From contig JBHNWI010000380.1 in assembly GCA_048127485.1 (NCBI GenBank), positions 43,563,036 through 43,627,035 on the forward strand: DNA of 64,000 bases, given 5' to 3'. The position numbers and the translations under genes are program-made. Source of the stretch: Solemya velum. Lineage: Eukaryota. Of this stretch, positions 11,459-64,000 are shown in pieces. The notes beneath the pieces were generated by a model. The model ran no database searches, was not told the origin of the DNA, and saw nothing but the letters and a program-made list of their open reading frames with translations. Position 1 is the first letter of the stretch. The number at the start of each line of letters is the position of its first letter.

Positions 11459-13379
11459 TTTATCTATTTTTATTACCAATCATGTTGAACCTTCAGTCAT
11501 GATTGTATGTTTAAGCTTTTGGGAAAATTTGCCCAGAGGCAACTCAATTGAAAAATGTTACTTGCCCCCAATTGGTGTGCACTTTTCTAATCATGCCTAA
11601 CTTTTGTGTGCAAATATCGGTGAAGGACTTTGAATAGTATCTTGATAGTTTGTCCCAAGGAAGAAAAGTGTTACTAACCATAACAATTTAGTTTCCTCTG
11701 ATTCTGGATGATTCATGCTAAGCTAACTTTGCAATTTTCCATACAGAGTTGTCGACCTTGCAGGCTTTCGATCTCTGTAAACATCTCGATTTCACAAGAT
11801 TCTTGTAAAATAAAAATATACTTCAGATTTTTCTTCTAAGACGCTATTCGTCTTTTTTGTCCTATATCTTCAGTTTTGACGTGAAATATGCTTTTTTTTA
11901 GGCGAAATACAATTTTAAAATGCTATATTTATAAGGACTATATTATTGTCGAACGTTCTCCTAATTTGAGTATTTTTCAAATACAGCGTTTTTAAATTGT
12001 ATATTAAATGTCTTCAGTCCTGTTTGGCTTCCAATGCTTAAAGGAAATGGGCCAGTGGCAGAAAGTTGTATAATTTCAAAATAGCTTGTAACATCTGTAA
12101 TAAATTGAAGACTCTTACCATTAAACTATGCGATAGTACATCACATCACTCTCCCGACATTGGTCACATCGATGAGATGATGTTTCATTTTGCATTGATG
12201 TTAATGAGAGGACAAAACTGGTGTTCACATTCCCATCCACATATGTTTGCTCCTGAGTTTCCACAAAATGGGATGTGTCTCTTCACTATGCTCTCAATGA
12301 CTGTAATTATCTTAAATCATTATTGAATTCATAAAAATATTCAGAGACATAAAAGCATTCATGAAACAATGTTCAGTACTTTGTTGTGCTCAATTTGGAG
12401 AGAAGTGATCCTTCAACCATTTTGAGTAAGATATAATATCGATATTACCATCCCAGCTGAATAGTATTGAGTTGGCAGCGATGAAAATAATGATGATGAT
12501 AAGCTGGTTTGTTTTTAGGAGCATCTAATGCACAAATGAAGCTAGGGAAACCACCTTTCATTGACAGGGCACTAACACCCTTCCCATTGAAATTTGACGA
12601 AACAGAAGCTTGCAAGTCTTCAGGCGACAGGGAGACAACCAGATGTCAGATGTCTAACCAAGGCCCCAGTGATGAAGTGAGGTGATGACTGCCATTGTAC
12701 ATTGAAAGAAAAAATCCATGACTATCATATATAGATGTTTCTCAAAATCGAATGACAATGCATTTCTACGCGACACTATTCTACAATATTCAAATTTGAT
12801 CAATATATTGTTTACAATTAATCCAGAAAAAGCAATATCATTATAAAAACAACTATGAACATTGTATTAAATATGGATGCACCCATCAAAAAAAATTAAT
12901 CGATTCAAACAACCACAATGTCCCAACGATGATGTAAAAACTGTGAGAAAATTTAGAAACTATCACCATAGGGCTGGAAATTAGAATGCTTTTTGAAAAA
13001 TAGTGAAATAAAACTAATGGTTTGATACCCCAACCTAAAAAAAGATCTTTTTCAAAAGGTGATAGACGAAAATAAAATGTTAGCTTCTTATGGAGTCATT
13101 TGAGGTCCTTATCAAATAAATCAACAAACGCACGTATTCCCATTCAACTCATCAGGGGATACTGTATTTACATCTCAAACAGATAAACATTTAGTTGAAA
13201 ATCTCAATACATATTTTGACAATATATCCAGCCAGGGTTGTACAAAAACAATTGAACAATTAACAAGAGTAGCATGTTTTACTGAAAAATAATTTAAATT
13301 AAAAAAAAGGAGTTAATTTTAAACATTAGATGATGTTTCAAAACATATTGCTAATCTAGACTCCACTAAAGCCATGGAA

Positions 13380-21900: not shown

Positions 21901-22599
21901 CTCTTATTCTGTTAAGGTTAACAGTATCTTGATTGTGCTCCACCAAAGAGAACTGACTCAAACATGGCACACCAGTTATAGTCTCATGCGACAGATTGAA
22001 GGTCATCTGGAGGTTGATTCAATCCAAAACTCTGAATTTGGAGCAAAGCTTAGTAGCAACAATAACAGGGGCAGGCAACCATTCCACAAACACAAGTATT
22101 TCTGCAACTCTTTCTGAGAATTTACAAGAATTGGCTTCTTCGAAAATGGATTGGATTCTGTATGAATGCAGGCTGTATTTATTGTGAACATCTGCAGACA
22201 GGTCACATGCCTATCTGGTGTGCACAAGCATGCACAAGATGATTTTTTTCATGTGAGTCGTCATCGTTGAAGTTGACGGCATCGTCAACATTTCATTTCC
22301 GAGGCACACTCCTAAACTGCTGGGTGGATTGGAACCATACTGCACAGAAGGGATCCCCATCACACTAGATGTGCTTTTTTGGGTAGTTTAGTCGTCTAAC
22401 CTATTTTCTGTTCACAGAACAAAAATGGCCTAGGATGCTTGTATTACTATTAAATAGGAAAAGAACATCAAATCTATTTTTCTCATCTTCTGCTGGTTTC
22501 CCATTGTTCGAAAGAGCATAGGAGTTCAGATTAAAACCACAGCATTTTTTGTTTAACACTTTCCACTTGAAAAAACAACAATACCACATATACTGGGGT

Positions 22600-22710
<111 letters not shown>

Positions 22711-22808
22711 AGAAAATCAACTTTCGTACCCTTGTCAATTATAGTGCTCAATCAAAATTTGAGAGCGGTATAAGAAGAAAAGCAAAGTGGAAGTTTGGTG
22801 CTTTATTT

Positions 22809-22858
22809 CATGACAACACTACGGACCGTTTCGCCCGAAGGCTCGTCAGGTGTGTGAT
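22809..22858 (-). ncRNA. Hammerhead ribozyme-like motif (left TIR copy)
   Basis: The reverse complement reads CACACCUGACGAG-CC-UUCG-GG-CGAAAC-GGUCCGUAG: a CUGANGA box, a 3-bp helix II closed by a UUCG tetraloop, and a GAAA box. It is followed by the near-palindromic CGGUCCG containing GUC, as in dimerising minimal PLE hammerheads. Confidence 0.45.
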
Positions 22859-22988
22859 AAAAATGAACAAGATCAATGTATATATAAGGTTTGGTCATAA
22901 TGGATTAATAATAATTATAATGACATAGCGGTACTTTCTCGTCGTGGCTTCTGTGTAGGTGAGTCGTCGGTAATTAAGCTACAGCTGC

Positions 22989-23486
22989 ATGGACAACATA
23001 GGCAAAATCATCAAAGCTCACAACACAGCCATCCTTCAACAGAACACTACCACAGAACCCAAACTCTGCAATTGTCGAAAGAAAAATGAATGTCCACTAG
23101 CCGGAAAATGCCTCACAAAGAACGTCATCTACAAAGCAACAGTCGAAACTACCCACGAAACAAAAGAATACATAGGAGCCTGCGACACCGACTTCAAAAC
23201 CAGATGGCGCAATCACAAGTCCTCCATCAAACTACCACACAAACGCAGCGACACCGAGCTCAGCAAATACATTTGGGACAGAAAGAACACCGACACACAG
23301 TACAAACTAACATGGGCTATACTCAAACAAGCGAAGTCATACAGCAACACAACTAAAAGATGCAACCTTTGTCTATGGGAAAAATTCTTCATAATCAACG
23401 CAAAGAAAGAAAGAAATCTGAACAGACGATCAGAACTGATTAGCAAATGCCGCCATGCCAACAAATTCCTACTGATGAACGCCTAA
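22989..23486 (+). CDS. Zn-finger + GIY-YIG endonuclease-like protein (165 aa)
   Basis: The protein reads CNCRKKNECPLAGKC…NVIYKATVETTHETKEYIGACDTDFKTRWRNHK. This is a CxC…CPLxGxC finger followed by GIY(IY)-x10-YIG-x8-R-x3-NH, the same architecture as the PLE EN domain at 26790-27010 (CGRSNCGTCPFL…LLYVIRCLGCGEYYIGQTGTELRKRVTVHK). A second CxxC…C…H cluster lies near its C-terminus. Confidence 0.6.
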   Translation: MDNIGKIIKAHNTAILQQNTTTEPKLCNCRKKNECPLAGKCLTKNVIYKATVETTHETKEYIGACDTDFKTRWRNHKSSIKLPHKRSDTELSKYIWDRKNTDTQYKLTWAILKQAKSYSNTTKRCNLCLWEKFFIINAKKERNLNRRSELISKCRHANKFLLMNA

Positions 23487-23764
23487 CAGTCCTCACTACG
23501 CCGCTACCCAGATCACCCAACTCCCAACCAGCCCACTCACCGCCTAACAGAGACAACAATAGATGCCGACACACACTGAAGCCACATCTACCTCCACCTG
23601 AATCGACCGTCACCCAACCCTGCGAAGCCTAATCAAACAGCGCCGACATACCCGTTAATTACCGACGACTCACCTACACAGAAGCCACGACGAGAAAGTA
23701 CCGCTATGTCATTATAATTATTATTAAACCTTATATATACATTGATCTTGTTCATTTTTATCAC

Positions 23765-23810
23765 ACACCTGACGAGCCTTCGGGCGAAAAGGTCCGTAGT
23801 GTTGTCATGG
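23765..23810 (+). ncRNA. Hammerhead ribozyme-like motif (right TIR copy)
   Basis: The sequence is CCUGACGAGCCUUCGGGCGAAAAGGUCCGUAGUGUUGUCAUGG. It has the same core as the left copy with one substitution after GAAA. Confidence 0.4.
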
Positions 23811-23918
23811 AATAAAGCACCAAACTTCCACTTTGCTTTTCTTCTTATATATATATATATCGCTCTCTTTATAGATTGAGCACTTTAATTGACAAAAAGG
23901 ATTGAATTGATTTTCTAT

Positions 23919-23941
23919 ATATATATATATATATATATATT
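23919..23941. repeat. (TA)n spacer between the GIY-YIG element and the PLE
   Basis: Direct reading. Confidence 0.9.
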
Positions 23942-24637
23942 TGAAAATTGTTTTTTTAAATACACAAGTAAGATATATTTGAAAACAAGGTAAAAATCAA
24001 AACGCAAACACCAAATCGTTTCAAAGTACTCCCTACGGTTTCGTCTCCTCATCAGGGAAGTAACTGTTTATTAACGTGACGTAATCATTACGTAACGTAT
24101 ATAAGGGAGGTAATATATATACACAGATCACATAAAGAGAGAAATGACAAATATATTGTGTTGTCTAAATAAACCATCATACCAATTAATTACTGTTAAC
24201 ATATTCAGCAATATAATCGAATATATAATTTGACGGCATATTATATTTCATCGGAAAATACTCATATAGTATAGTAAGAGTCTCTGTTAAAGACGTTATC
24301 AAAACACGATGATTTCAACCATTTCATACAATAATACACAGACATATATAAGCGGGATATTTTATAGGTTTTACGGAGCCAGAGACCCCCCCCCAAAATA
24401 ATGTTATACAATGTAGTAATATGTCCATGTTAAGACACTCTTTAAACCGTTAAAATTAAATTTTGTCATACAATGTTGTAATATGTAGTTAAAGAGATAG
24501 GGTTTTATATGTGGACTTTAACACTGTAGAATTATGTAACAATAATTTGCTTAGACTATTACTCAGACTGTTTAAACATTCTAATACAATGTTAACACTG
24601 TAAATTTCTCTTAGGAAATATTATAAAATAATCAGTA

Positions 24638-25408
24638 TCAATGTGCATTCAATTTAGGGTTATATTTTCTAATAAATTCTTTCTCTTTCGTCACCCTTTC
24701 ATTCTCGGTCGTATCAGAACGTAACTTATAAAATGGATAAATAGAAAATCCAATGATTTTATTTGCAGCGCAATTTGCAATATGACCGCTCAGTGGTATC
24801 ATGCGAACAGACGGGTCCCTAATCTGTTGTTTGTGAACTGTGACTCGTTTCCGCAGTTCAGTACCTGTCTGGCCTATATAGTCCTCACCGCAACCAAGAC
24901 ACCTAATAACATAGAGAAGGTTATTACTGGCACAGTTCATTGGACTTTTGATGTTAAACATAAAACCATTCTTGAATTCATAAGAACGTCCTTCTATTAA
25001 AAATGGACAAGTTCCACAATTCGAGCGTCCACACTTCGTGATTCTTGTATCCTCGCTGGATTTATCTTCAAACTTGGCTTTTGTCAATATTCGTTTCAAC
25101 GTTTTTGGCTGTCTCTGGCTATTTATAATTGGGGATGTTTCTAAAACCTTTTTCATTTTGTGATCCTGTTCCAGTATTGGAATGTTGTTTTTAATTATAT
25201 TGAAAGCTCTTGGGTTACGTGGATTGTAAGTTGTAACTAGCGGTAAGATTTTATCATCAGTATGTACTTTCGTTTCTCTTAATTCCACTTGGTTTTGACT
25301 TCTTGCTTTCTCAATCCCGAAATCAATTAGCTTTTCTGGATATCGTCTTTGTTTCAAATGGAATTTAAGTTCTTTCAATCTGGCATCTCTGGTGGTGGTA
25401 TTTGACAC
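24638..25408 (-). pseudogene. Inverted partial PLE ORF (thumb/linker + Zn-finger + GIY-YIG EN, 256 aa, intact frame)
   Basis: It is ~97% identical at protein level to 26440-27188 on the + strand. GIY-YIG is present as LLYVIRCLGCGEDYIGQTGTELRKRVTVHK. Confidence 0.75.
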
Positions 25409-25496
25409 AATGGTGCAAATTCTCCGAGCTAAATTATAAGGAATATTTCTGATCGTATGTTTGGGGTGACTGGAGTAGAAGAATAAATATTGTTTC

Positions 25497-27188
25497 GTGT
25501 CAGATTATCTTACTAATTTTGAGTGCAAAACTAGCAATTTTTACGGGCTCCCCAAAGTCCACGAGAGTGACACCATAAAGAAAATGTGTGAAGAAACTAA
25601 GTTACCGTACATAGAAATGATAAAACTAGACAATCTGAAACTTCGTCCTATAGTAGCCGGTCCAGCCAATGAAACACACAGACTTAGTTCTTTCCTGGAT
25701 TTACTTCTAAAACCATTTCTTAAACATATACCGAGTTATATAAGAGATGACATCGATTTCCTACAACACCTCCCACAGTCGGTAGAAGAGGATACAGTTT
25801 TAGTTACACTTGACGTTGTTGGGCTCTACTCTAACATACCTCATGATTTTGGTATCAAAGCCCTCGAATACTGGACAAACACCCGGAAGAATTACCCGAT
25901 CGAGTCAGTAAAGAATTTATACTTGAAAGTATGATATTCATTCTGAATAACAATTACTTTCTCTTCAACAACAAGAGCTACAAACAGATAAAAGGGACTG
26001 CCATGGGAACTAAGGTTGCACCCACATATGCCAATTTGGTGATGGGCTATTTGGAAAATTTGATTAATGAAAAAGTTGCAATTGCTTATCCTGATATGCA
26101 TACTGCAAATTTTGTTCAAAACTGGAAGAGATACCTAGATGATTGCTGGTTTCTATTTCGCAAACGTGGGGTAACCTGAAGGAGTTCCACGAACTACTTA
26201 ATAACATCCATGCCGATTTCCAGTTTACAGTAGAATCAAGTGAAAATAAAATACCGTTCCTAGATATTCTTATCATCAAAAAAGAAAACCTACAGATAGA
26301 AACTGACATGTATTTCAAAACAACCGACACGAAACAATATTTATTCTTCTACTCCAGTCACTCCAAACATACGATCAGAAATATTCCCTATAATTTAGCT
26401 CGGAGAATTTGCACCATTGTGTCAAATACCACCACCAGAGATGCCAGATTGAAAGAACTTAAATTCCATTTGAAACAAAGACGATATCCAGAAAAGCTAA
26501 TTGATTTCGGGATTGAGAAAGCAAGAAGTCAAACCAAGTGGAATTAAGAGAAACGAAAGTACATACTGATGATAAAATCTTACCGCTAGTTACAACTTAC
26601 AATCCACGTAACCCAAGAGCTTTCAATATAATTAAAAACAACATTCCAATACTGGAACAGGATCACAAAATGAGAAAGGTTTTAGAAACATCCCTAATTA
26701 TAAATAGCCAGAGACAGCCAGAAACGTTGAAACGAATATTGACAAAAGCCAAGTTTGAAGATAAATCCAGCGAGGATACAAGAATCACGAAGTGTGGACG
26801 CTCGAATTGTGGAACTTGTCCATTTTTAATAGAAGGACGTTCTTATGAATTCAAGAATGGTTTTATGTTTAACATCAAAAGTCCAATGAACTGTGCCAGT
26901 AATAACCTTCTCTATGTTATTAGGTGTCTTGGTTGCGGTGAGTACTATATAGGCCAGACAGGTACTGAACTGCGGAAACGAGTCACAGTTCACAAACAAC
27001 AGATTAGGGACCCGTCTGTTCGCATGATACCACTGAGCGGTCATATTGCAAATTGCGCTGCAAATAAAATCATTGGATTTTCTATTTATCCATTTTATAA
27101 GTTCCGTTCTGATACGACCGAGAATGAAAGGGTGACGAAAGAGAAAGAATTTATTAGAAAATATAACCCTAAATTGAATGCACATTGA
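25497..27188 (+). pseudogene. PLE RT–EN ORF, 5'-truncated and interrupted by at least 3 frameshifts
   Basis: Four consecutive ORFs in different frames (25497-25934, 25931-26179, 26143-26547, 26538-27188) together span RT motifs 1-7, the thumb and the EN. The left-arm copy reads straight through the 26530 region. Confidence 0.8.
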
Positions 27189-27754
27189 TATGATTATTTT
27201 ATAATATTTCCTAAGAGAAATTGACAGTGTTAACATTGTATTAGAATGTTTAAACAGTCTGAGTAATAGTCTAAACAAATTATTGTTACATAATTCTACA
27301 GTGTTAAAGTCCACATATAAAACCCTATCTCTTTAACTACATATTACAACATTGTATGACAAAATTAATTTTAACAGTTTAAAGAGTGTCTTAACATGGA
27401 CATATTACTACATTGTATAACATTATTTTGGGGGGTCTCTGGCTCCGTAAAACCTATAAAATATCCGCTTATATATGTCTGTGTATTATTGTATGAAATG
27501 GTTGAAATCATCGTGTTTTGATAACGTCTTTAACAGAGACTCTTACTATACTATATGAGTAATTTCCGATGAAATATAATATGCCGTCAAATTATATATT
27601 CGATTATATTGCTGAATATGTTAACAGTAATTAATTGGTATGATGGTTTATTTAGACAACACAATATATTTGTCATTTCTCTCTTTATGTGATCTGTGTA
27701 TATATATTACTTCCCTTATATACGTTACGTAGTGATTACGTCACATTAATAAAC

Positions 27755-27800
27755 AGTTACTTCCCTGATGAGGAGTCGAAACGGTAGGGAGTACTTTGAA
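27755..27800 (+). ncRNA. Hammerhead-like core in the PLE terminal repeat; its mirror copy is on the − strand at 24025-24060
   Basis: The sequence UUCCCUGAUGAGGAGUCGAAACGGUAGGGAGUAC has contiguous CUGAUGA…GAAAC boxes. Helix II is only marginal (GGAGUC), so this is tentative. Confidence 0.3.
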
Positions 27801-27876
27801 ACGATTTGGTGTTTGCGTTTTGATTTTTACCTTGTTTTCAAATATATATATATATATATATAATAAGAAAATAAAT

Positions 27877-27995
27877 TTGGTTGTTGATAGATCAACACTT
27901 TTGATTAGTTTCGTCCTCTTCAGCATTCTTCAGATGAAGAGTGCTGAAGAGTATGAAACTGATCAGTAGTGTTGATCTATCGCCAACCAAACTAA
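27877..27995. repeat. ~115-bp near-perfect palindrome (foldback) immediately 3' of the PLE
   Basis: TTGGTTGTTGATAGATCACACT… is mirrored by …AGTGTTGATCTATCGCCAACCAA, with an inner palindrome TCCTCTTCAGCATTCTTCAG/ATGAAGAGTGCTGAAGAG. Confidence 0.5.
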
Positions 27996-28108
27996 TTTTC
28001 TATTAGCAATGCTCTGGTTCTCCATTGAGCACTTTGTTAACAGTCTCTGCAAAATACATTTTGCAACATACTGTATATACATGTATATACATTGCCTTTA
28101 ATTTTCAG

Positions 28109-28327
28109 GTACTTCGGGTAATGTCGTCCAAATACTGACAAATTGGTTTGAAGTTAAAGTTCGAGATCAGGGAGAAGTATATCAGTACCATGTTGATTAC
28201 TGCCCATCGGTGGATTCCAAGGAGGTCAGGGTTGGCATGTTATTGAAGCATGAGGCTATGCAAGGAAGAACGAATGCCTTTGATGGGATGACACTGTTCA
28301 CACCACAGAAGCTCTCTCAAGAAGTTG
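28109..28327 (+). CDS. PIWI: PIWI exon A (N domain): (G)TSGNVVQILTNWFEVKVRDQGEVYQYHVDYCPSVDSKEVRVGMLLKHEAMQGRTNAFDGMTLFTPQKLSQEV
   Basis: An AATTTTCAG acceptor and a G|GTATTA donor. The exon aligns to the Piwi N-terminal block (GTxGxxVxLxTNxFxL…YQYHVxY…AFDGxxLF). It enters in phase 1, so at least one upstream coding exon exists. Confidence 0.8.
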
Positions 28328-28409
28328 GTATTATTTTAATGTCTGTTAACAGTTAGCAAACTCACTGCAATTGAAAAGAGACTTCAAGTTCACAAACTCG
28401 TCTCAAGTG

Positions 28410-28700
28410 TGACCAGCACCATGGCCTAGCTGCTAGAATGCCCAATCTGTGACTGGGAGGTCAGGAGTACAAACACTGGCTGAGATAAACCAGAAGTCTA
28501 AAAATTGATATTTCTTGTGTCCATTGGCGGGCATCTGATATTAGGGTTAACACAAGGGCTGGTTAACCTGGTGTCTGTATATTGTGACTTTGGAGGATGT
28601 CATGTGGTATGTGATATGGCATTCTGGTGTGACAGCACCTTAAAGAGCAACATGAGTCTGCACTGTCTTGCACTGCAAGTTAATGAGTAGAATGTGTAGG
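28410..28700 (+). mobile_element. tRNA-derived SINE copy (same family as 15655-15905 and 51230-51520)
   Basis: The head is TGGCCTAGCTGCTAGAATGCCCAATCTGTGACTGGGAGGTCAGGAGTACAAAC. The body is homologous to the other copies. Confidence 0.45.
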
Positions 28701-31411
28701 TGTAATATTCATAAATATGAATACATTGAAAAAAATTATACTTGAATACAACTGTAGCTAAAGGAAAAGTCGAACCTAAGTTTTCACTGATTGAAATTAA
28801 CACATACATTTAAAGATGTAGGAATTATTTATGTTTGTCCGTTGATAGAGTTGTTCCAAATAATAGAACCAGGTACAATGGAAATTATATGGGAATCGCA
28901 TGATTGAGGTCGACACATTCATACAGGACAGCCTTGTATATTGACATTTGTTGGGACTCATCATACAGGACAGCCTTCTCATCACATTTCGTGGGTCTTA
29001 TCTAATAAGATCTAGCTATTTGTTACATTGTAGATAACAACTTTATCTTTCCAAAATATATGGACATTAAACAATGGTAATGTTAACAATGAACAATCAA
29101 GAGCAGCTCTACAACTACTTCTCCAATCAATCTTATATTTACTGTAACCTAAAGGCCTATCAAATCTGTTTTGTGATCATTCTATTCCTTATAAGAAAAG
29201 CCCTACTGATTAGCACGACAATGTGATGCATGGTGACCATCAGAATACAGTTCTAACAGAGTAAAAACTTCCATACCAAAATTACTGTCCTTCATAGCTG
29301 AATGATTGCTAAAAAGGGCTCCAATACACATACTACCAAATTGAACTATTGACGGTTCATGAAGATTAAAGTACTATATAGAATTGCATGTGTGGACATT
29401 AGTCTATTTTTCTAAAACATTTTTTGGAATTAAATCTAGCATTATATTTAGAAATATATAGCATGTACATGACGCATGATCATTTTCTGGTTTTCATTAA
29501 TGGTGCTCTGAACTAGAACAGTGGAAAATCAAAAGTCTCATTGACCCTGTTTTAGTAATATACTAGTAAACAAAACAATACAATACACATATTAGTACAG
29601 CAGATGTGCATTTCTATAATTAGAGAACTGGAGAACTGAAGAAAGGAAACTGACACACCTTACTCTCACTTTCATTCATCTCAGGCTCAGGTCTAGTATT
29701 AATTATAAAAATATAAAAAATAAAGGTATGTTTGTTTGAAAAGAAGTTTGCTGCTGTGCAATGTGTCCACTGATATCAACTGATGTAAGTGTTATCATTC
29801 ATAACTCTTGACAGACATCTCCATCATATAGTTCAACATATATATGTAATTGCAGGTTTTTGAAGGAAAAATTTTAAATAAAATTATTCTTTTTTGCATT
29901 TTATTTGTGTAAAGTTTCTTACTAATGCATACTGTTGGCTTATATTCAAAGTAAACTTGGCCTAGGTGCCAGTCATGTTAAGAACTCCATTCAAAATAGC
30001 ATGGCATGATTTTAAATTTTCATTGATTGAAAAATGCCACCGTTACAACCGTATATTATATAAACAATATGGCAACCGGTCAAAAGCAAATGACAAACAT
30101 GTATGTACATCAATAAAATTGTGAGAGAAGATCAAGTCTTATAAATATACCCATGGAATGTGCAGTTATATCGCTAAAGGGGTGCTAGCACATATGACTT
30201 CGGTACCTACAGGCATACACTGCGTTGAAGGGGCATCTTTTTGGGCAGTTTTGGCATAATATGATACAAACTGTAGCATCCTATAAATTCTACCTGGGTA
30301 TGGGGTAATTATTGTAAACTTGAGATTGTAAAATAATAGACAAATTGTGGTCACTTGGGCATGAAACTAGTAAATCCACAAAAGGTTTCAGTTTATGTCC
30401 AGTTGCCCCCAAAATGAAGATGAGGTGAGCTGATTTGTTTTAGAGTCTTGTTTTGCACAATTACAACTATATAAGCCCCTGTCATTGTGAGTAGCAGGGT
30501 GAAGAAACCACTTAAAAGTAGATTGAAAGAATCTAAGACCATCTATGGCCATCGACGTCTTTCTCACAGGCAAGTCCAGGAAGACTCCACCGTTGAAACA
30601 AACTTTGCTTGCAGCAAACTTTGCCAACAACATGGCTGGAACCAACAATGCTGAAATATGAGAGGCACCAAGACTAGACACTGAACTGACAGTGCCTTAT
30701 CCACTTGGCCATGGAAGCACTTCCAAAACGAAGAAAAGTAGTTGTCACACATGCATAATTTACCCACTACCCTGGTATAGTCTTTGTTAAGAAACTATAG
30801 TCTGTATCATATTATAAAATAAGGTTTCCCCCAAGTGCCTCTTTAAACCAGTTAAACCAGTTTCAGTTGATACCCATGCATTTAACAATATAATGAATGT
30901 GAACAATCATATCTTTTATTAGGTCTCCAATTCAGATACCAGAACAAGGAAATGTTAAATTATATTACACATCATTGCCATTGTTAGAAGACAAACCAAA
31001 TATTGTAACAAACTGATTTTAAAATATGAATTTTATCTTATCCATTCTGTAATTATTCCAGGTCTTTATAAGTTATAATGGCTCTCTATTGAGTGAGAGT
31101 GATCAAACTAACATTTTATTATTCATATGTCTGCAAGTAAGGTGATTCGATAACTCACCCAGTCAGGAATGTTTAGGTTTATGTGAAAAGATACCAATGA
31201 AAATAGCCACCCCTTGTGAACATATTTTTCATATCTGATGATATAGCATTTATTCATTGCTTATGCTTGTTATTCTTTTGCAATAACTAAGAAAACAAAT
31301 TAAAAAAATTAGCAAATTGGCATAGCTTTGATTGATCAAATGGGCTTTGGCATGAAAATGTTTAAATATGTTGAAAATAATTAAAAATATAAGCATTTTT
31401 ATAGGTTACAG

Positions 31412-57277: not shown

Positions 57278-58271
57278 CTAAACTCTCGACAACACATCTG
57301 CCACTATATTTTCTGAACCAGGAATATACACAACTTTGAATTTGAACTCCTGCAATGTGAGACTCCATCTCAACAGTCTCTGGTTTGACATTTTGACACT
57401 ATCAAGCCATTTCAAAGGTGCATGATCTGATTCAATAATGGACTCTGTATCTTCTAAATATACCCTCAATGATTTCACCGACCATACTATGGCATAGCAT
57501 TCCTTTTCTATGACCGCATAGTTTCTCTCAGAAGTACTCAACTTTTTACTCATGTACAACACTGGATGCCTACCATCATCAAATGATTGTTTTAACACCG
57601 CCCCAACCCCGTGTCACAAGCATCTGTCCTAAGAATGAACTGTTTTTCAAAATCCGGACTTCTCAATACTGGTCCCTTCAGCAAAACCCGTTTCAAACTT
57701 TCAAAAGCCTGTTGCAATGTTTCATTCCAAATCACTTTGTTTGGCATTGATTTCTTTGTCAAATCAGTCAATGGTATAGCCAATGTTGCAAAATTCTGAA
57801 CAAATTTTCTATAGAACCCCACGAAACCAAGGAAACACTTTACCTGTTTCTTTGTCAGTGGTTGTGGAAAATTTTGAACGATTGCCATTTATCAAGTGTA
57901 GGTTTCACCATCCTATTTCCTACAACATGAGCTAGAAACACTAATTGTGGGAATCCAAAGCTACATTTGCTCGGTTTAGCAGACAAATTAGATTTCCTCA
58001 ATGCTAGAAATACCAGCCTCAGATGCTCTATGTGATCATTCCAAGTATCACTGTATACACCTATGTCATCAATAAATGCTTCTGTGAATGACTCGTAACC
58101 CTGCAAAACCTTGGCCACGAGACGAACAAACGTCGCTGGCGCACAAACCATACCAAATGGCATAACAATGAAACGATACTGACCGAATGCCGTAACAAAA
58201 GAGCTCTTTTGTTTGGCATCTTCATCCAGTGGTGCCCCGTGGGGATCCGGGGTAGAATAGATCCTCTGCAC
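57278..58271 (-). mobile_element. Ty3/gypsy-type LTR-retrotransposon pol fragment (RT + RNase H), truncated at its 5' end by the LINE insertion
   Basis: Minus-strand ORFs carry …PFGMVCAPATFVRLV…AFIDDIGVYS… (RT, YxDD), …FLGFVGFYRKFVQNF… and …ERNYAVIEKECYAIVWSVKSLRVYL…DHAPLKWL…VVYIPGSENIVADVLSR (RNase H). Upstream at 56250-57270 there are possibly LTR-like repeats. Confidence 0.8.
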
Positions 58272-61200
58272 CCCCTTGCATTCGTAAGAGGCGATAAAAT
58301 GGGGGCAACCCGTTTGCCGTGGGTTGCGACCCGTGATGGCGGAGATGGGAATCCTGATGGCTGAGGAGTCCCGTGGTACGCCCCCCTTGGTTATATAGAG
58401 TCTTGACCATTTCTCTCCAACACGCCATTTTGGCCCCGTATTCGCCTAGACGGGTGGTTAGGGTTGGCTCGCCCTAATCAATCGGCTGGTCATAACAGGT
58501 CCTGGAGTTGTGACCAATAGTTCTCGGTTAAAAACTTTTATCAAACATATTTTTAGAAACAAATTTGAATTCTTTTCTATTTCATTGACTACTTTCATTT
58601 CTCATCATGTCACCTCTCCAGAAGACGATGGCTTAGAGTCAATCGAGTGGTTAAATTTGGCATTGTGCGTTCAGGTACACATGGCGCCATGTGTGCATGG
58701 ACGCACATTATTTTATTTCTCTATTCGAGTATAGCACTTGCGTAGCCCTGACAGGGGTGTGCGCTGGGTATTCCCGCACTTCTCTGTCCCCTTGTTGGGC
58801 TCCGAGGCGGGTGGGGAGCGCAAGTGTCGAATAAATAATCCATACCCATGGCTTCCAAAACAAAGCAAAACCATTCTGCGTCCTCACGTCATTTAAAACG
58901 ACAAAAGCTCGCGGTGGTTGATTCGACATCTGAATCAGATACTATGATCAGTTGTCGAATCATCATCTACTACAGGTAATAGTTGGCCTCGGTTCGTTGT
59001 AATCGAGGGCAAGAATGAAAATTTACAAAATTGTCACCTTTTGCTATATGCAAAGGTTTTCAAAGTACATGTGGAGACCCCCAATCAGTAAAGACCCTTC
59101 GTTCAGGATGCTTGCTGGTTGAGTGCGCTACTCCAAAACAAAGCTTCACACTACTAAAACTTAACAAATTTGTCAATCAGTCTGTTACAGTCACACCACA
59201 TAAAACTCTGAACACATGCAAAGGTGTGGTCCGTTCCAGGGACCTTCAACACACTGATGAGTCTGAGATGCTCCTTGGTCTCAAGGACCAAGGGTAACCC
59301 AGGCTCAACGGATTCATGTCAGACGTGGGATGGCAGGGTGCCTACAAACACTTACATCCTCACATCAACACACCAAAAATACCACCTTTTATCAAAGTTG
59401 GGTATATACGCATCACTGTCGAGGCGTATATTCCCAATCCTCTTCGTTGTTTTAAATGTCAACGGTTTGGCCATCACCAGGGACCTGCAAGCGAGAGGCT
59501 GTGTGCTCTCGCTGCAGTGAAGTTGGTCATGATGGCTCTTCATGTACAAAAACAATGAAATGTGCCAATTGTTCAGCACAACATTCAGCATTTTCTAAAG
59601 ACTGTTCATTTTGGAAGAAGGAAAAGGAGATTCAGCGCGTGAAGGTTGTTCGGGGTATGTCATTCCCTGATGCCAGGAAATTTGTGGAGGCCACAACTGT
59701 AGGTCAGTCTGGCAAGTCGTTTGCGGACGCGGCCCGAGTTGCCAAGCCAGCCCCCACAAATCTGTCTCGGTACAGACAGATATGACATGGCCCGAGCAAC
59801 TTCCAACTTTCGCTCTTCTCCCCAGTACTCAAAAACTATGAAAACTGTTTCTTCAACACAGACCACAACCATCACTCATCCCAAGACTGCTACTGGTAAA
59901 ACACCAACAGCAAAACCTTCCGTTCCCCCAAAACCTACTAAGAATAAATCATTGCTCTGACCCCTACTGCACTTGTTAAAATCACCCCTGAGCCGCCCGT
60001 TACACCTCAACGGCGGCCCCGGATCACAAGGTCAAATAGGCAGAAGAAGGGATCAGATGATCCTATCAAGCTGCACAATCGCTATGGCAGCTTGATGGAG
60101 TCTGATGACCTCTCTTCGTCATTTGATCCACTCAGTCCTAGCAAACACAAACATAGTCCTCATAAACCCACCTCATCATTCTTGATGATATTATGGAAGT
60201 GAGTGTCAACTCCTCCCAAAAACAACTTTTTTCTGGCTGTCCTTCGGAGCCTATCGACCCCGAAGTGATGTGCCCATCGACCAATACAAGTCCTATTAAA
60301 GGACCGAGTCCCATTAAACACCCTTAATGGAGAACTCCAAAATCATTCAGTGGAATTGTAGAGGTTTAAAGGCCAACTTTAATGAAATAAGTCTTCTATT
60401 AAATGATAAGCAACCTGCAGTCGTATGCTTGCAGGAAACACTTCTCAATGATAAAGATACCATTACTTTTAAAAACCATTCTATGTATAATTTCATTTTT
60501 CCCACCGAGAATAGAGCTTGTGGTGGTGTTTCTGTTATTGTTAATAATAGAACACCCCACAGTCCTGTCTCTTTGAACACCAACCTGCAAGCAGTTGCAG
60601 TCCGTGTTACACTACACAAAACAATCACTGTCTGTTCTCTGTACTTACCGCCTTCGTCAACTATAATATAAGTGACTTAGACCATCTTGTCACACAGTTA
60701 CCCACACCTTTCATGTTACTAGGCGATTTTAATGGCCACAATTATCTATGGGGTTGCAGAGATATTAATGCCAAGGTAAATTAATAGAAGACTTCATTTC
60801 AAAACACAATCTCTGCCTTTTTAACAATAAAACTTCTACCTATCTACATCCCGCTTCGGGATCATACACTTCCATTGATCTTTCCATCTGTGATCCATCA
60901 GTTTTCTTGATTTTACATGGAGAGTCGACGACGACCTCCATGGAAGTGATCACTTTCCCATCATTTTAGACACCACGGGCCAAATCAACCAGATAGGGCA
61001 CCGAGGTGGAATTTACCTAAAGCAGATTGGACTAAGTTCCAGAATCTGTGTGAGGATCGATTATCTCACTTTACAGTGAAGGATGATCAAGACCCTATTG
61101 AGATTTTTTACCTCTATTTTACATGATGTGGCTACAGAAGCCATACCCAAAACGTCCTCAACTTGTGCCAAATTTAAAAAACCATGGTTTACAGATGAAT

Positions 61201-64000
61201 GCAAGGATGCAATTAGTGAACGCAAGAGGGCACTACGTCTTTTTAAACTGTGCCCTACTGCTGACAATCTTAACAGTTTTCGTATATTTCGCGCAAAAGC
61301 TCGGCGCACTATTCGAATAAACAAGAGGAAGACTTGGAGAAATTACGTCTCCAAGTTGAACTCGCGTTCTTCCATAAAAAAAACATGGGATATGGTTCGA
61401 AAATTCAGGGTAAATCAAAATCTAACCATGTCCATCACCTTAATAGTGATGGAAAACTGATTACATCTGTTCCAGATATAGCGAATACCCTGGCGGACGC
61501 TTTCTCCCACACAACTCTTCTGCAGAGCATTGCTCTAAAGAGTTCTTCGCGTAAAAAAACGCAAAAGAGAAACGCCCGCTGAAATTCAAATCCAAAAACA
61601 CCGAGGATTATAATAAAGTTTCTCTATTAGAGAGTTGAAAGATTCTCTTAATAGAGCCAATGATACCGCTGCTGGACCCGATGAAATACCCTACCAGTTT
61701 CTGAAACATTTACCTGATACAGCTCTTCTCTTTGCTTGATATTTTTAACAATATATGGCAATCTGGTAATTTCCCTCCCTCATGGAGGGAAGCTACTATT
61801 ATTCCCATACCCAAACCCGACAAAGATCATTCTAACCCCACAAATTACCGCCCTATTGCGCTCACTAGTTGCATTTGTAAAACCATGGAACGTATGATCA
61901 ATGATAGACTTGTCTGGTTCCTTGAATCAAATAAACTGTTAACCAACATTCAGTGTGGTTTCAGGAGCCAGAGAAGTACTACCGACCACTTGGTCAGACT
62001 AGAAACTTTTATTCGCGAAGCTTTTATTCGTAAAGAACATGTTGCATCTATCTTTTTCGATCTTGAAAAAGCATACGATACAACATGGAAATATGGTATA
62101 ATGAATGACCTGTTTGATATGGGTCTCGAGGACATTTACCTCACTTCATTAGCAGTTTTTTATATGATAGACATTTTAAAGTAAAGTTGGGTCTACCCTT
62201 TCTGACCTGCATGATCAGGAAATGGGTGTACCACAGGAAGCATATTATCCGTTACCCTTTTTAGTATAAAATCAATAGTCTTGCGAAATGCATAGCGCCA
62301 GGAGCTGAGGGATCTCTGTATGTTGATGACTTCCTCCTGTGCTATCGTTCAAAAAATATGAATAGCATTGAACGTCAACTCCAGTTGTCGCTTAATAAAA
62401 TACAAAAATGGGCTGACAATAATGGTTTTAAATTTTCTAAAGCCAAAACAGTTTGCATGCATTTTTGCCAATTACGAGGAATTCACCATGATCCCCAGTT
62501 ATTTCTCAATGGCACAGCGATTCCTGTGGTAAGGAAACTTTCTGGGTATCATGTTGGATCCCAAGTTAACTTTTGTACCTCATATTAGATATTTGAAGTC
62601 AAAATGCCATAAAGCTATTAATTTTTTGCGAGTTGTAGCACATACCGACTGGGGGCAGATCGTCAGGTTCTGCTCCGCCTTTATAGATCACTTGTCCGAT
62701 CAAAGTTGGATTATGGTAGTGTAGTCTATGGCTCAGCTAGAAAATCATATCTGAAGTTGCTCGACCCCATTCATAATCAGGGTCTTCGATTATGTCTTGG
62801 GCTTTTAGAACCCCCTGCGGAAAGCTTGTACGCCGAGGCCAATGAACCTTCCTTGTATCTTCGACGTAAAAAGCTTTCTTTGCAGTATGCTACCAAGCTG
62901 TACTCAAACCCTGATAACCCTGCTTTTGACTGTGTTTTTAATCCCAAATATGAAGTTTTATTTGTACAAAAACCTAATGCTATTCCAACTTTGGTATACG
63001 TGTTGGTCCTGAACTTGCGGAAGCTGGTATTGATGTGGATCAGATAGCTGCGAACTCGGTGCCGAGATCTCCTCCTTGGTTGACAGCAACACCGAAAATA
63101 CTTTTTGACTTGAACAAGTCAAAAAAGGCCACTACGGATCCACTTCTTTACCGTTCCCATTTTTTGAGCTTCGTGATATTTATAGGAATTTTATAGACAT
63201 TATACTGATGGGTCAAGGGAGGGTGACCACGCGGCAGCTGCAGTCGCAACTCCAACTGGCATCCTCTCTACAAGACTTCCTGACAAATCTTCAATTTTTA
63301 CTGCTGACTTCGGGCTCTTCTCATGGCACTAGACTATATATAGAGTCCCGTGGTAGAGAGTTCATTATTTTTTCAGACTCTCTGTCATGTTTACAAGCAT
63401 TACATTCTTTAAAGTTCAAAAATCCCATTATATCTACCATTCTTGCAAAGCACAGCTGCCTTCTCTCCCGAGAGAAGACAATTGTGCTTTGCTGGATACC
63501 CAGTCATGTCGGTTTCGTGGTAATGAACGGGTGGATTCTGCAGCTAAAAAGCACTGAATTCACCCATAACTGATTTCAAAATATTATATACAGATTTTCA
63601 GTATTACATTTTTAAATACATACGTATGATCTGGCAGTCCAGTTGGAACGAGGCTCTTTCCAATAAGCTTCACGATCTGAAGCCTATTTTAGGTGAATGG
63701 CGTGGAGCTTACAGGAACATTCGTCGTGAGGAGGTTGTACTGTGCCGATGTCGCATTGGGCATACTCTCCTCACACACTCATTTCTTTTAAGGGTGACAC
63801 TCAACCGCGGTGTGTTTCTTGTTGCTGTCCTTTGACAGTGAAACACATCATGGTTGAGTGTCCACATTTAGCCAGCAATAGAGACCGTTTTTACAGAGTC
63901 CGAACAATGCTAGACTTGTTCGGCTCTGTTTCTACCGACCAGATTTTAATTTTTTAAAGTATACCATTTCTTTTCAAAGTTTTAAACACGTTTTATAATT
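58272..64000 (+). mobile_element. Non-LTR retrotransposon (I/LOA/Nimb-like clade: gag-like ORF1 with CCHC knuckles; ORF2 with APE–RT–RNase H–CCHC), frameshifted, running off the 3' window edge
   Basis: The ORF1 region 59031-59785 (frameshifted across 3 frames) has CxxC…H…C knuckles. ORF2 spans 60327-63957 across ≥9 frame changes. It includes APE (QWNCRGLKANFNEISLLL…VVCLQETLL), RT (NYRPIALTSCICKTMERMINDRL…FDLEKAYDTTW…), RNase H (IFSDSLSCLQAL…WIPSHVGF) and a C-terminal CCHC. Confidence 0.8.

Follow-up and report, generated by a model that had tools for sequence, protein, structure and literature searches.

A dead head-to-head insertion of a Penelope-like element, Neptune-type by its motifs, in a (TA)n microsatellite of Solemya velum

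A stretch of 64,000 nucleotides from Solemya velum (GenBank assembly GCA_048127485.1, contig JBHNWI010000380.1, positions 43,563,036 to 43,627,035 of the forward strand), hereafter called the window, was analyzed for a Penelope-like element (PLE) at 23973-27847. It represents a dead insertion from a PLE family that is new and as yet without a name, Neptune-type by its diagnostic motifs. A 2346-nt plus-strand copy (25502-27847) is joined head-to-head to a 1529-nt minus-strand copy of its own 3' part. The element probably integrated into (TA)n by target-primed reverse transcription, with both target strands cleaved and extended.

The arms of the inverted structure were first located as collinear inverted segments by a repeat search over 22000-30000. 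In a gapped alignment, the minus-strand arm (23973-25501) and the plus-strand arm (26326-27847) matched at 1506 of 1522 aligned bases (98.9%), and differed by 16 substitutions (10 transitions and 6 transversions) and 5 indel events. An earlier sequence-only reading of the window had described a reverse transcriptase (RT)–GIY-YIG copy joined head-to-head to an inverted copy of its own 3' 1.5 kb, and had proposed that the arms be aligned and their substitutions counted. The alignment showed that the arms are indeed reverse complements and had been placed correctly, the estimate of about 97% identity being too low. The 824 nt between the arms (25502-26325) are unique to the long copy. The junction between 25501 and 25502 is exact, with 1 nt of microhomology (base 25501 fits either copy), and both filler and target bases are absent from it. 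Both outer ends abut (TA)n. A direct pseudo-long terminal repeat (pLTR) is absent at this locus, where only the inverted head-to-head partial dimer is present.

Three near-identical copies of the family (L001, L089 and L090), 0-0.4% apart, were found in Logan assemblies of independent public sequencing runs. L001 and L089 have intact open reading frames (ORFs) of 764 amino acids (aa) and L090 has a shorter, 364-aa ORF call; the family is probably still active. These copies were informative for the outer ends of the locus. The 3' end of L090 reads ...CCTTGTTTTCAAATATAT-CATACTTGTGTATTTAAAAAAACAATTTTCAA-(TA)n, and the left arm, read on its own strand, ends identically. The right arm passes from ...TTTTCAAATATAT directly into (TA)n. 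Because L090 and the left arm share this sequence and the right arm is without it, 23941-23972 was identified as a PLE tail, derived from the element and present at one end only. Its length of 32 nt agrees with the 30-40 bp of the optional PLE tail (PMC8557442; PMC11167929).

The same comparison indicates that the short arm is not a DNA copy of the long copy, since the tail is found at the left end and in L090 and is absent at the right end. It thus bears on a scenario in which a simple 5'-truncated insertion was followed by a DNA-level inverted duplication of the 3' 1.5 kb, through fold-back or template switching in replication or repair. Fold-back replication errors can yield long inverted repeats, and an exact junction with 1 nt of microhomology would fit such an event. 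However, the duplication does not provide for an element-derived tail on the short arm that is missing from the long copy, and L090 contradicts an origin of this tail from flanking DNA. Moreover, equal decay of the arms is predicted and was not seen, and the duplicate would have to land in such a way that (TA)n flanks both ends. We consider this scenario very unlikely.

The arm differences were polarised with L089 and L090. Over the whole shared region, the long copy has 14 private substitutions and the short arm has 2 (binomial p ~0.004 for this split); in the 3' untranslated region (UTR) only, the numbers were 9 and 0. Private 1-nt deletions were likewise restricted to the long copy (4 versus 0), and the short arm has a single private indel, GGG inserted into a run of G. 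The 14 private substitutions of the long copy were inspected for a signature of RNA or DNA editing, and none was found, their spectrum being mixed. Common to both arms, relative to L089 and L090, are 17 derived substitutions and the loss of 1 nt in CCGG, which points to one source lineage for the two. The long copy is 96.3% identical to L090 (for L089, see Table 1), and the short arm is 98.1-98.2% identical to L089 and L090. The window and these copies thus derive from one species or from two very close ones.

The element had been called young but disabled, which agrees with these identities to intact copies and with the three frameshifts described below. The duplication had also been called recent from the identity of the arms. 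The near-identity of both copies to intact ones supports a recent origin, but the identity between the arms is no clean clock: because decay was unequal, it does not date the insertion. For the same reason, the open frame of the short arm reflects less decay and not selection.

The greater decay of the long copy, in substitutions, in its 3' UTR and in deletions, would suit a history of two separate insertions, the long copy arriving first and a younger copy of the same subfamily inserting later, in opposite orientation, into (TA)n beside the 5' end of the long copy. The same microsatellite did take several PLE insertions. Against this, the two 5' ends meet exactly, neither (TA) nor any other target base separating them, and the 17 derived substitutions and the CCGG deletion common to the arms are absent from the intact copies. 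Moreover, single PLE integrations have been described to produce partial dimers in head-to-head arrangement (PMC8557442). Two insertions are therefore judged improbable, though less so than a DNA-level duplication. The least credible alternative, to which nothing points, is an assembly artefact, in which the assembler joined two genomic copies of the family at a repeat. PLE tandem and inverted structures are known to trouble assembly (PMC8557442), but here the arms differ by their substitutions and indels, each runs into its own microsatellite flank, and the join falls at unrelated positions of the element (codon ~200 versus codon ~476), not at a shared repeat.

The reading that we favor is a single integration. 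The GIY-YIG nuclease of the element would cut the AT-rich target, and both DNA strands would be extended on element RNA, with two complementary DNAs (cDNAs) converging from the two flanks. The cDNAs would end after 2346 nt and 1529 nt (plus the 32-nt tail) and be ligated head-to-head, each outer end corresponding to an element 3' end. Both putative RT start sites come after a UUUUCAA-AUAU sequence. The two cDNAs would begin at these different internal initiation sites, and only the left end would therefore have received the tail. To judge from the unequal decay of the arms, two slightly different transcripts probably served as their templates. Each 3' UTR carries the hammerhead of the family, placed as in the pLTRs of PLEs, and the 6-nt palindromic helix III of the family implies that it would act as a dimer. 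In work with a purified PLE protein, both strands were cleaved and extended, and reverse transcription began at two internal sites, which define the tail (PMC11167929). PLEs with a CX2-5CxxC linker typically target (TA)n and leave an inverted 5'-truncated copy and a tail at one end (PMC8557442). The sequence-only reading had already considered the inverted partial copy typical of PLE integration, and this geometry is indeed described for PLE insertions (Craig 2021, PMC8557442). The locus itself is a textbook dead PLE insertion, mainly of annotation value. It would nevertheless show in a genome the two-strand, two-start-site integration model that recently came from in vitro work. The unequal decay argues for two templates, and warns against dating such dimers by the identity of their arms.

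The locus is a dead relic, with a ribozyme damaged in both arms and three frameshifts in the long ORF. On the plus strand, four consecutive ORF pieces lie in three frames; on the minus strand, the endonuclease (EN)-containing arm keeps the intact 256-codon frame that had been noticed earlier. Protein homology of the short arm extends past this ORF up to the junction (tblastn match 25504-24641 at 99%). At least three frameshifts had been suspected in the long copy, and global alignment with the intact L089 revealed exactly three frameshifting deletions in the coding sequence. The last of them, at 26531, is also visible against the short arm. With the frameshifts repaired, the long copy contains 0 premature stops and differs from L089 at 19 of 564 residues, and the frame-corrected protein matches Pfam RVT_1 (E 3e-9). 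Its EN carries a private D>Y change beside YIG. Both arms encode LLYVIRCLGCGEDYIGQT...RVTVHKQ...SGH, corresponding to CCHH, with two Cys between GIY and YIG.

In a single polypeptide, the domain order of the element is RT, CX4CxxC linker and C-terminal GIY-YIG EN. A large protein database yielded 1190 homologues at E<=1e-10, whose precomputed Pfam domains include RVT_1 and often GIY-YIG. The best homologue (P0001) is an intact 764-aa ORF and is 95% identical, the next best being ~55% identical. Named homologues are bivalve proteins, or come from bivalve-symbiont assemblies that evidently contain host contigs. GLKF, DKG, CX4CxxC and CCHH are all present in two intact relatives of 764 aa, P0001 and P0390, of which P0390 lies on L089. 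The N-terminal motifs of P0001 read KGLKFTP and EADKGSA, the window copy being truncated upstream of both. The Cys and His columns of CCHH are invariant in 24 relatives; in the linker CGRSNCGTC (C-X4-C-X2-C), C634, C639 and C642 are invariant in a 24-sequence alignment.

Canonical EN+ PLEs are defined by a C-terminal EN with CCHH, and a CX2-5CxxC linker sets Neptune (and Nematis) apart from Penelope/Poseidon (PMC8557442). By its domains and motifs, the element at 23973-27847 is a canonical C-terminal EN+ PLE. Its earlier naming as a Penelope-like element is thus upheld by RVT_1 followed by a C-terminal GIY-YIG with CCHH, an architecture that the 1190 homologues share. The motifs of the Neptune set were all found: a CX2-5CxxC linker, GxKF/Y and DKG (N-terminal motifs read in P0001), no CxC and a C-terminal EN. 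The Hydra clade is characterized by CxCX5C, absence of CCHH, DKT and RWK, and Naiad/Chlamys by an N-terminal EN (PMC8557442). Of the Hydra features (CxCX5C linker, no CCHH, DKT, RWK), the element shows neither the linker nor the loss of CCHH, having CX4CxxC and CCHH, with DKG in its relatives. As for the Naiad/Chlamys features (N-terminal GIY-YIG, CxC motif, insertion in the fingers domain), the EN of the window copy, like that of every intact relative, is C-terminal. Neptune is paraphyletic in published trees (PMC8557442).

An additional ORF1 is present in relatives (L003 60-1271, L004 23-1162, L001 1-300). It is 43% identical over 150 aa between two families (E 7e-41), and ends just before the RT-EN ORF or overlaps it. 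A Pfam search with the ORF1 of relatives gave no match.

The earlier reading had noted a CUGAUGA...GAAAC motif at 27765-27782 and its mirror within 24035-24056. Both are present, at 27765-27782 on the plus strand and, as the mirror, at 24055-24038. Our own descriptor required CUGANGA, GAAA, a U-H dinucleotide for cleavage, and pairing of helix I (first 4 pairs) from either side of the cleavage site. In dinucleotide-shuffled windows, both core boxes plus a helix I of 7 bp or more come up at an expected rate of 0.025 per window; two such motifs were seen here, both in the 3' UTR of the element. A covariance model (R1) was then made from ten relatives, excluding the near-identical copies and all window sequence, and was run unfiltered on both strands (128 kb). 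It ranked the two arm motifs 1st and 2nd in the window, and the hammerhead of the adjoining Hydra-type element 3rd. The proposal of a hammerhead-like motif in the position of the pLTR is thus borne out by its conservation in relatives and by its recovery with R1.

All core positions are present in both arms: the CUGANGA and GAAA boxes and the G10.1-C11.1 pair, together with a 7-bp helix I. Helix II (GGAGAC) is a single G-C pair closed by a GAGA (GNRA) loop, and is not the extended helix of about 6-8 bp, followed by an unpaired base after A9, of the published minimal PLE hammerheads. L089 and L090 read GAAAC-CGG-U (helix III ACCGGU), and the family consensus motif is UACUUCCCUGAUGAGGAGACGAAACCGGUAGGGAGUA. 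The window copies, with ACGGU and ACCGU, are each one base short, and their helix III is non-palindromic. The long-copy hammerhead has the private changes GAGA>GAGU and ACCGU>ACGGU; its predicted cleavage site lies between 27786 and 27787, 61 nt before the element end. Minimum-free-energy folding of monomers and dimers was uninformative for the window copies; the relatives fold into the expected extended dimer. Judged by sequence, the terminal motif is a real, lineage-conserved hammerhead variant that has been damaged in both window arms.

Elsewhere in the window, R1 gave a partial match on the minus strand at 13136-13161 (16.4 bits, E 0.04), reading UAUCCCCUGAUGA-N6-UGGGAAU. It contains helix I and the first core box and no GAAA box, and may be due to chance or be a degraded remnant.

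In relatives with 45-55% identity to the window copy in their RT-EN proteins, a hammerhead was found on the coding strand downstream of the ORF in 11 of the 13 loci with enough 3' sequence. It lies 76-450 nt from the stop codon where the spacing is readable. L006 carries it twice, 3699 nt apart, as in a pLTR. Helix I of the relatives measures 5-10 bp, and its sequences differ yet remain paired in 10 relatives (the first 4 pairs being required by the descriptor). Helix III is always a 6-nt palindrome of the form ACNN'GU (ACCGGU, ACGCGU, ACAUGU, ACUAGU), which the descriptor did not demand. Helix II is 4 bp long in L002, L008, L015 and L016, 3 bp in L018, 2 bp in L006 and L020, 1 bp plus a GAGA loop in the window family, and absent in L004 and L009. 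More distant PLE loci (e.g. L027, L032, L040, L042) display classical minimal hammerhead ribozymes (min-HHRs) with a long helix II, loop 3 being absent.

A palindromic helix III (positions 15.2-16.2 and loop 3) is the signature of dimeric PLE hammerheads, and in metazoan PLE min-HHRs it is helix II that is long (6-8 bp) and helix I that is short (4-5 bp) (PMC4209133). Hammerheads in which a single G-C pair replaces helix II are active in vitro (PMC544870). By analogy, self-cleavage of the natural motif with a 1-bp helix II is plausible. We tentatively suggest that the lineage might carry a natural miniribozyme, in which helix II shrinks stepwise (4-3-2-1-0 bp) and the core, a long helix I and a palindromic helix III are kept; at present this is a possibility that we would not favor. 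If active as dimers, such motifs would form a class of natural hammerheads outside the Rfam models and the published PLE descriptors, and hammerheads would be undercounted in invertebrate genomes. The hammerhead of the window family, whose helix II has one base pair, goes undetected by Rfam, yet the motif is conserved at the corresponding place in distant relatives; ribozyme censuses probably overlook it.

Several points weigh against the account given here. The element is assigned as Neptune-type by diagnostic motifs only. Unequal decay of the arms is not predicted by one event followed by equal neutral decay, and needs the extra assumption of two templates. Priming on two strands is, for this family, suggested by the geometry of the locus and by analogy with another clade (Poseidon of Anolis). 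An Infernal hammerhead search had been recommended as a check. The Rfam hammerhead models (Hammerhead_1, _3, HH9, HH10 and II) gave no match at gathering threshold over the whole window and none at E<=10 over 22500-28200. The Rfam searches returned only weak microRNA and small nucleolar RNA matches, from (TA)n and hairpins. The motif is a reduced variant, with a helix III lesion in both copies. Finally, we know of no cleavage assay of a natural hammerhead with a 1-bp helix II.

Table 1. Features of the PLE locus and of the adjoining element, in window coordinates. A slash marks the predicted hammerhead cleavage site.
Feature	Position	Strand	Basis or remark
(TA)n microsatellite, left flank (target sequence)	23916-23940		Sequence read; repeat families D1/D2
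32-nt PLE tail, left end only; element strand reads CTTACTTGTGTATTTAAAAAAACAATTTTCAA	23941-23972	-	Right end without tail; L090 has the same tail, then (TA)n
Short arm: inverted 5'-truncated copy, last 288 codons of RT-EN ORF and 3' UTR	23973-25501	-	98.9% reverse-complementary to 26326-27847
Short-arm hammerhead, UACUUCC-CUGAUGA-GGAGAC-GAAAC-C-GU-A/GGGAGUA; helix III ACCGU, one base lost	24027-24062	-	Descriptor scan; R1 22.7 bits, E 6.6e-4
Open 256-codon frame of short arm, from GTG (thumb/linker and GIY-YIG EN)	24638-25408	-	CX4CxxC at 25033-25007; GIY..YIG block with CxxC at 24919-24866
Long copy: 5'-truncated, starts in RT N-terminal region at ...DYLTNFECK; RT motifs, EN, 3' UTR	25502-27847	+	97.0% identical to L089 843-3186
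RT motifs of long copy: RPIVAG; GTAMGTKVAPTYANL; RYLDDCW	25644-25661; 25994-26038; 26129-26149	+	Direct read
Interval holding the three deletions that shift the frame of the long copy and inactivate it (25874, 4 nt; 26167, 1 nt; 26531, 1 nt)	25874-26531	+	Global alignment to L089
EN module of long copy: CGRSNCGTC linker 26793-26819; GIY..CxxC..YIG 26907-26960; stop 27186-27188	26793-27188	+	Direct read
3' UTR (pLTR-equivalent region) of long copy	27189-27847	+	Homologous to L089/L090 downstream of ORFs
Long-copy hammerhead, UACUUCC-CUGAUGA-GGAGUC-GAAAC-G-GU-A/GGGAGUA	27758-27793	+	Descriptor scan; R1 22.5 bits, E 7.5e-4
(TA)n microsatellite, right flank	27842-27863		Repeat search and sequence read
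Hydra-type neighbor	Arms 22769-22977, 23655-23849; ORF 22989-23486 (165 aa)	+ (ORF)	EN motifs

A second inverted PLE dimer lies directly to the left of the locus (22769-23849). It combines a 209-nt inverted 3' fragment with an 872-nt 5'-truncated copy, and (TA)n is found on both sides. The copy begins inside the conserved SYSCMDN motif, and its ORF contains CNCRKKNEC (CxCX5C), no Cys between IYK and YIG, CNLC and CRH, CCHH being absent. Relatives of ~700 aa (P0308, P0311, P0376) contain RWK, DKT and YRDD; therefore, this element belongs to the Hydra clade. Each of its arms carries a near-canonical type I hammerhead, CCUGACGAGCCUUCGGGCGAAACGGUCCGUA/GUGU, with C15.2>A in the right-arm copy. The 165-aa ORF was also considered as a new endonuclease-only hammerhead element, its 144 word-indexed homologues all being short. 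This idea was rejected when exhaustive searching with HMMER turned up proteins of ~700 aa that have this C-terminal domain together with RWK, DKT and YRDD. A conserved internal Met accounts for the short ORF calls among the homologues.

Two shorter structures were observed at the same microsatellite. The segments 22708-22768 and 23850-23915 are inverted copies of each other, of visibly lower identity by eye, and both end in GATTTTCT beside (TA)n. They resemble short fragments of PLE 3' ends, an older pair that would have received the Hydra-type element as an insertion. To the right of (TA)n, a palindrome at 27866-28001 has 67-nt arms that are 85% complementary, a 2-nt spacer and CUGAAGA-N4-GAAAC in each arm. 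One arm contains a 10-nt palindrome, ACUGAUCAGU, followed by GUAGUGUUG, as in the Hydra-type neighbor. The whole structure probably represents an inverted PLE dimer of very small size, its truncation falling within the hammerhead. Its match to Rfam MIR5304 (29 bits, gathering threshold 75) was discarded as a hairpin artefact.

An exon at 28109-28320 on the plus strand follows a splice-acceptor AG and encodes a Piwi N domain (PIWIL1 residues 117-184, E 1e-13). A homology search with this exon gave no match, and its Piwi-like identity was confirmed only by comparison with the PDB. PAZ-, MID- and PIWI-like ORF pieces were seen by eye downstream on the plus strand; an upstream exon of the gene was not found. 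The PLE cluster lies just upstream of the exon, the long copy being in sense orientation relative to it. Most likely, the (TA)n tract is a PLE insertion hotspot inside an intron of the Piwi-like gene. A weaker reading is that the 1.5-kb inverted repeat would fold the pre-mRNA into a long double-stranded RNA hairpin, which could feed small-RNA silencing of the same PLE family. Neptune-type and Hydra-type PLEs, together with shorter fragments with PLE-like ends, occur as inverted dimers in one (TA)n tract beside the Piwi-like exon, an illustration of the microsatellite targeting that has been connected with the linker domain of the nuclease.

Two further retroelement-like regions were recognized by eye from translations in the distal part of the window: an LTR-retrotransposon-like RT fragment (...FIDDIGVYS...) at 57855-58271 on the minus strand, and a LINE-like series of ORFs at 60327-63573 on the plus strand, with an AP-endonuclease-like N-terminus followed by an RT.

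Among known systems, the element resembles the Neptune clade (Arkhipova 2006; PMC8557442) in its RT and C-terminal GIY-YIG, its CX2-5CxxC linker and CCHH, and in the DKG and GxKF of its intact relative. The insertion into (TA)n, the heavy 5' truncation, the inverted partial copy, the tail of 30-40 nt and a hammerhead in the pLTR or 3' UTR are likewise as in this clade (PMC8557442). Canonical PLEs are described as single-ORF elements, whereas the families related to this element carry a conserved upstream ORF1 of ~380-400 aa. The adjoining element at 22769-23849 belongs to the Hydra clade (Craig et al. 2021) and shares the inverted-dimer geometry and the (TA)n target. In contrast to Hydra elements, the element at 23973-27847 has CCHH and CX4CxxC, and its relatives have DKG instead of DKT and lack RWK.

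The terminal motif shares with the min-HHRs (Cervera & de la Pena 2014, PMC4209133) the type I topology, the CUGANGA and GAAA boxes, G10.1-C11.1 and, in the family, the palindromic helix III. As in min-HHRs, it lies in a terminal repeat and recurs on the opposite strand at a distance of a few hundred to a few thousand bases. The proportions are however reversed in the window family, which has a 7-bp helix I and a 1-bp helix II with a GAGA loop, and helix III of the window copies is 5 nt long and non-palindromic. Engineered miniribozymes, with G10.1-C11.1 and a 4-nt linker, have the architecture of the window family, and engineered minizymes, with an unpaired linker, that of L004 and L009 (PMC544870). 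These molecules are synthetic and trans-acting, have DNA arms and cleave efficiently in vitro, whereas the natural motif is known from sequence alone.

For the mechanism, the source is the Poseidon element PAc of Anolis carolinensis; no other PLE has been reconstituted in vitro (Frangieh et al. 2024, PMC11167929). PAc cuts AT-rich DNA on both strands and extends both, and the spacing of its two internal RT starts equals the genomic tail. It belongs to a different clade and is without the linker zinc finger. Here, moreover, both start sites lie beside AUAU, which could pair with the (TA)n target, and the hammerhead lies 570 nt after the stop codon, whereas that of PAc overlaps the ORF start. 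Finally, the locus is comparable to LINE-1 twin priming, in which two priming events on opposite strands of one target also lead to an inverted 5'-truncated structure. LINE-1, however, inverts the 5' part of a single copy by internal priming on the same RNA, whereas here both arms carry the 3' end of the element and both outer junctions are 3' ends.

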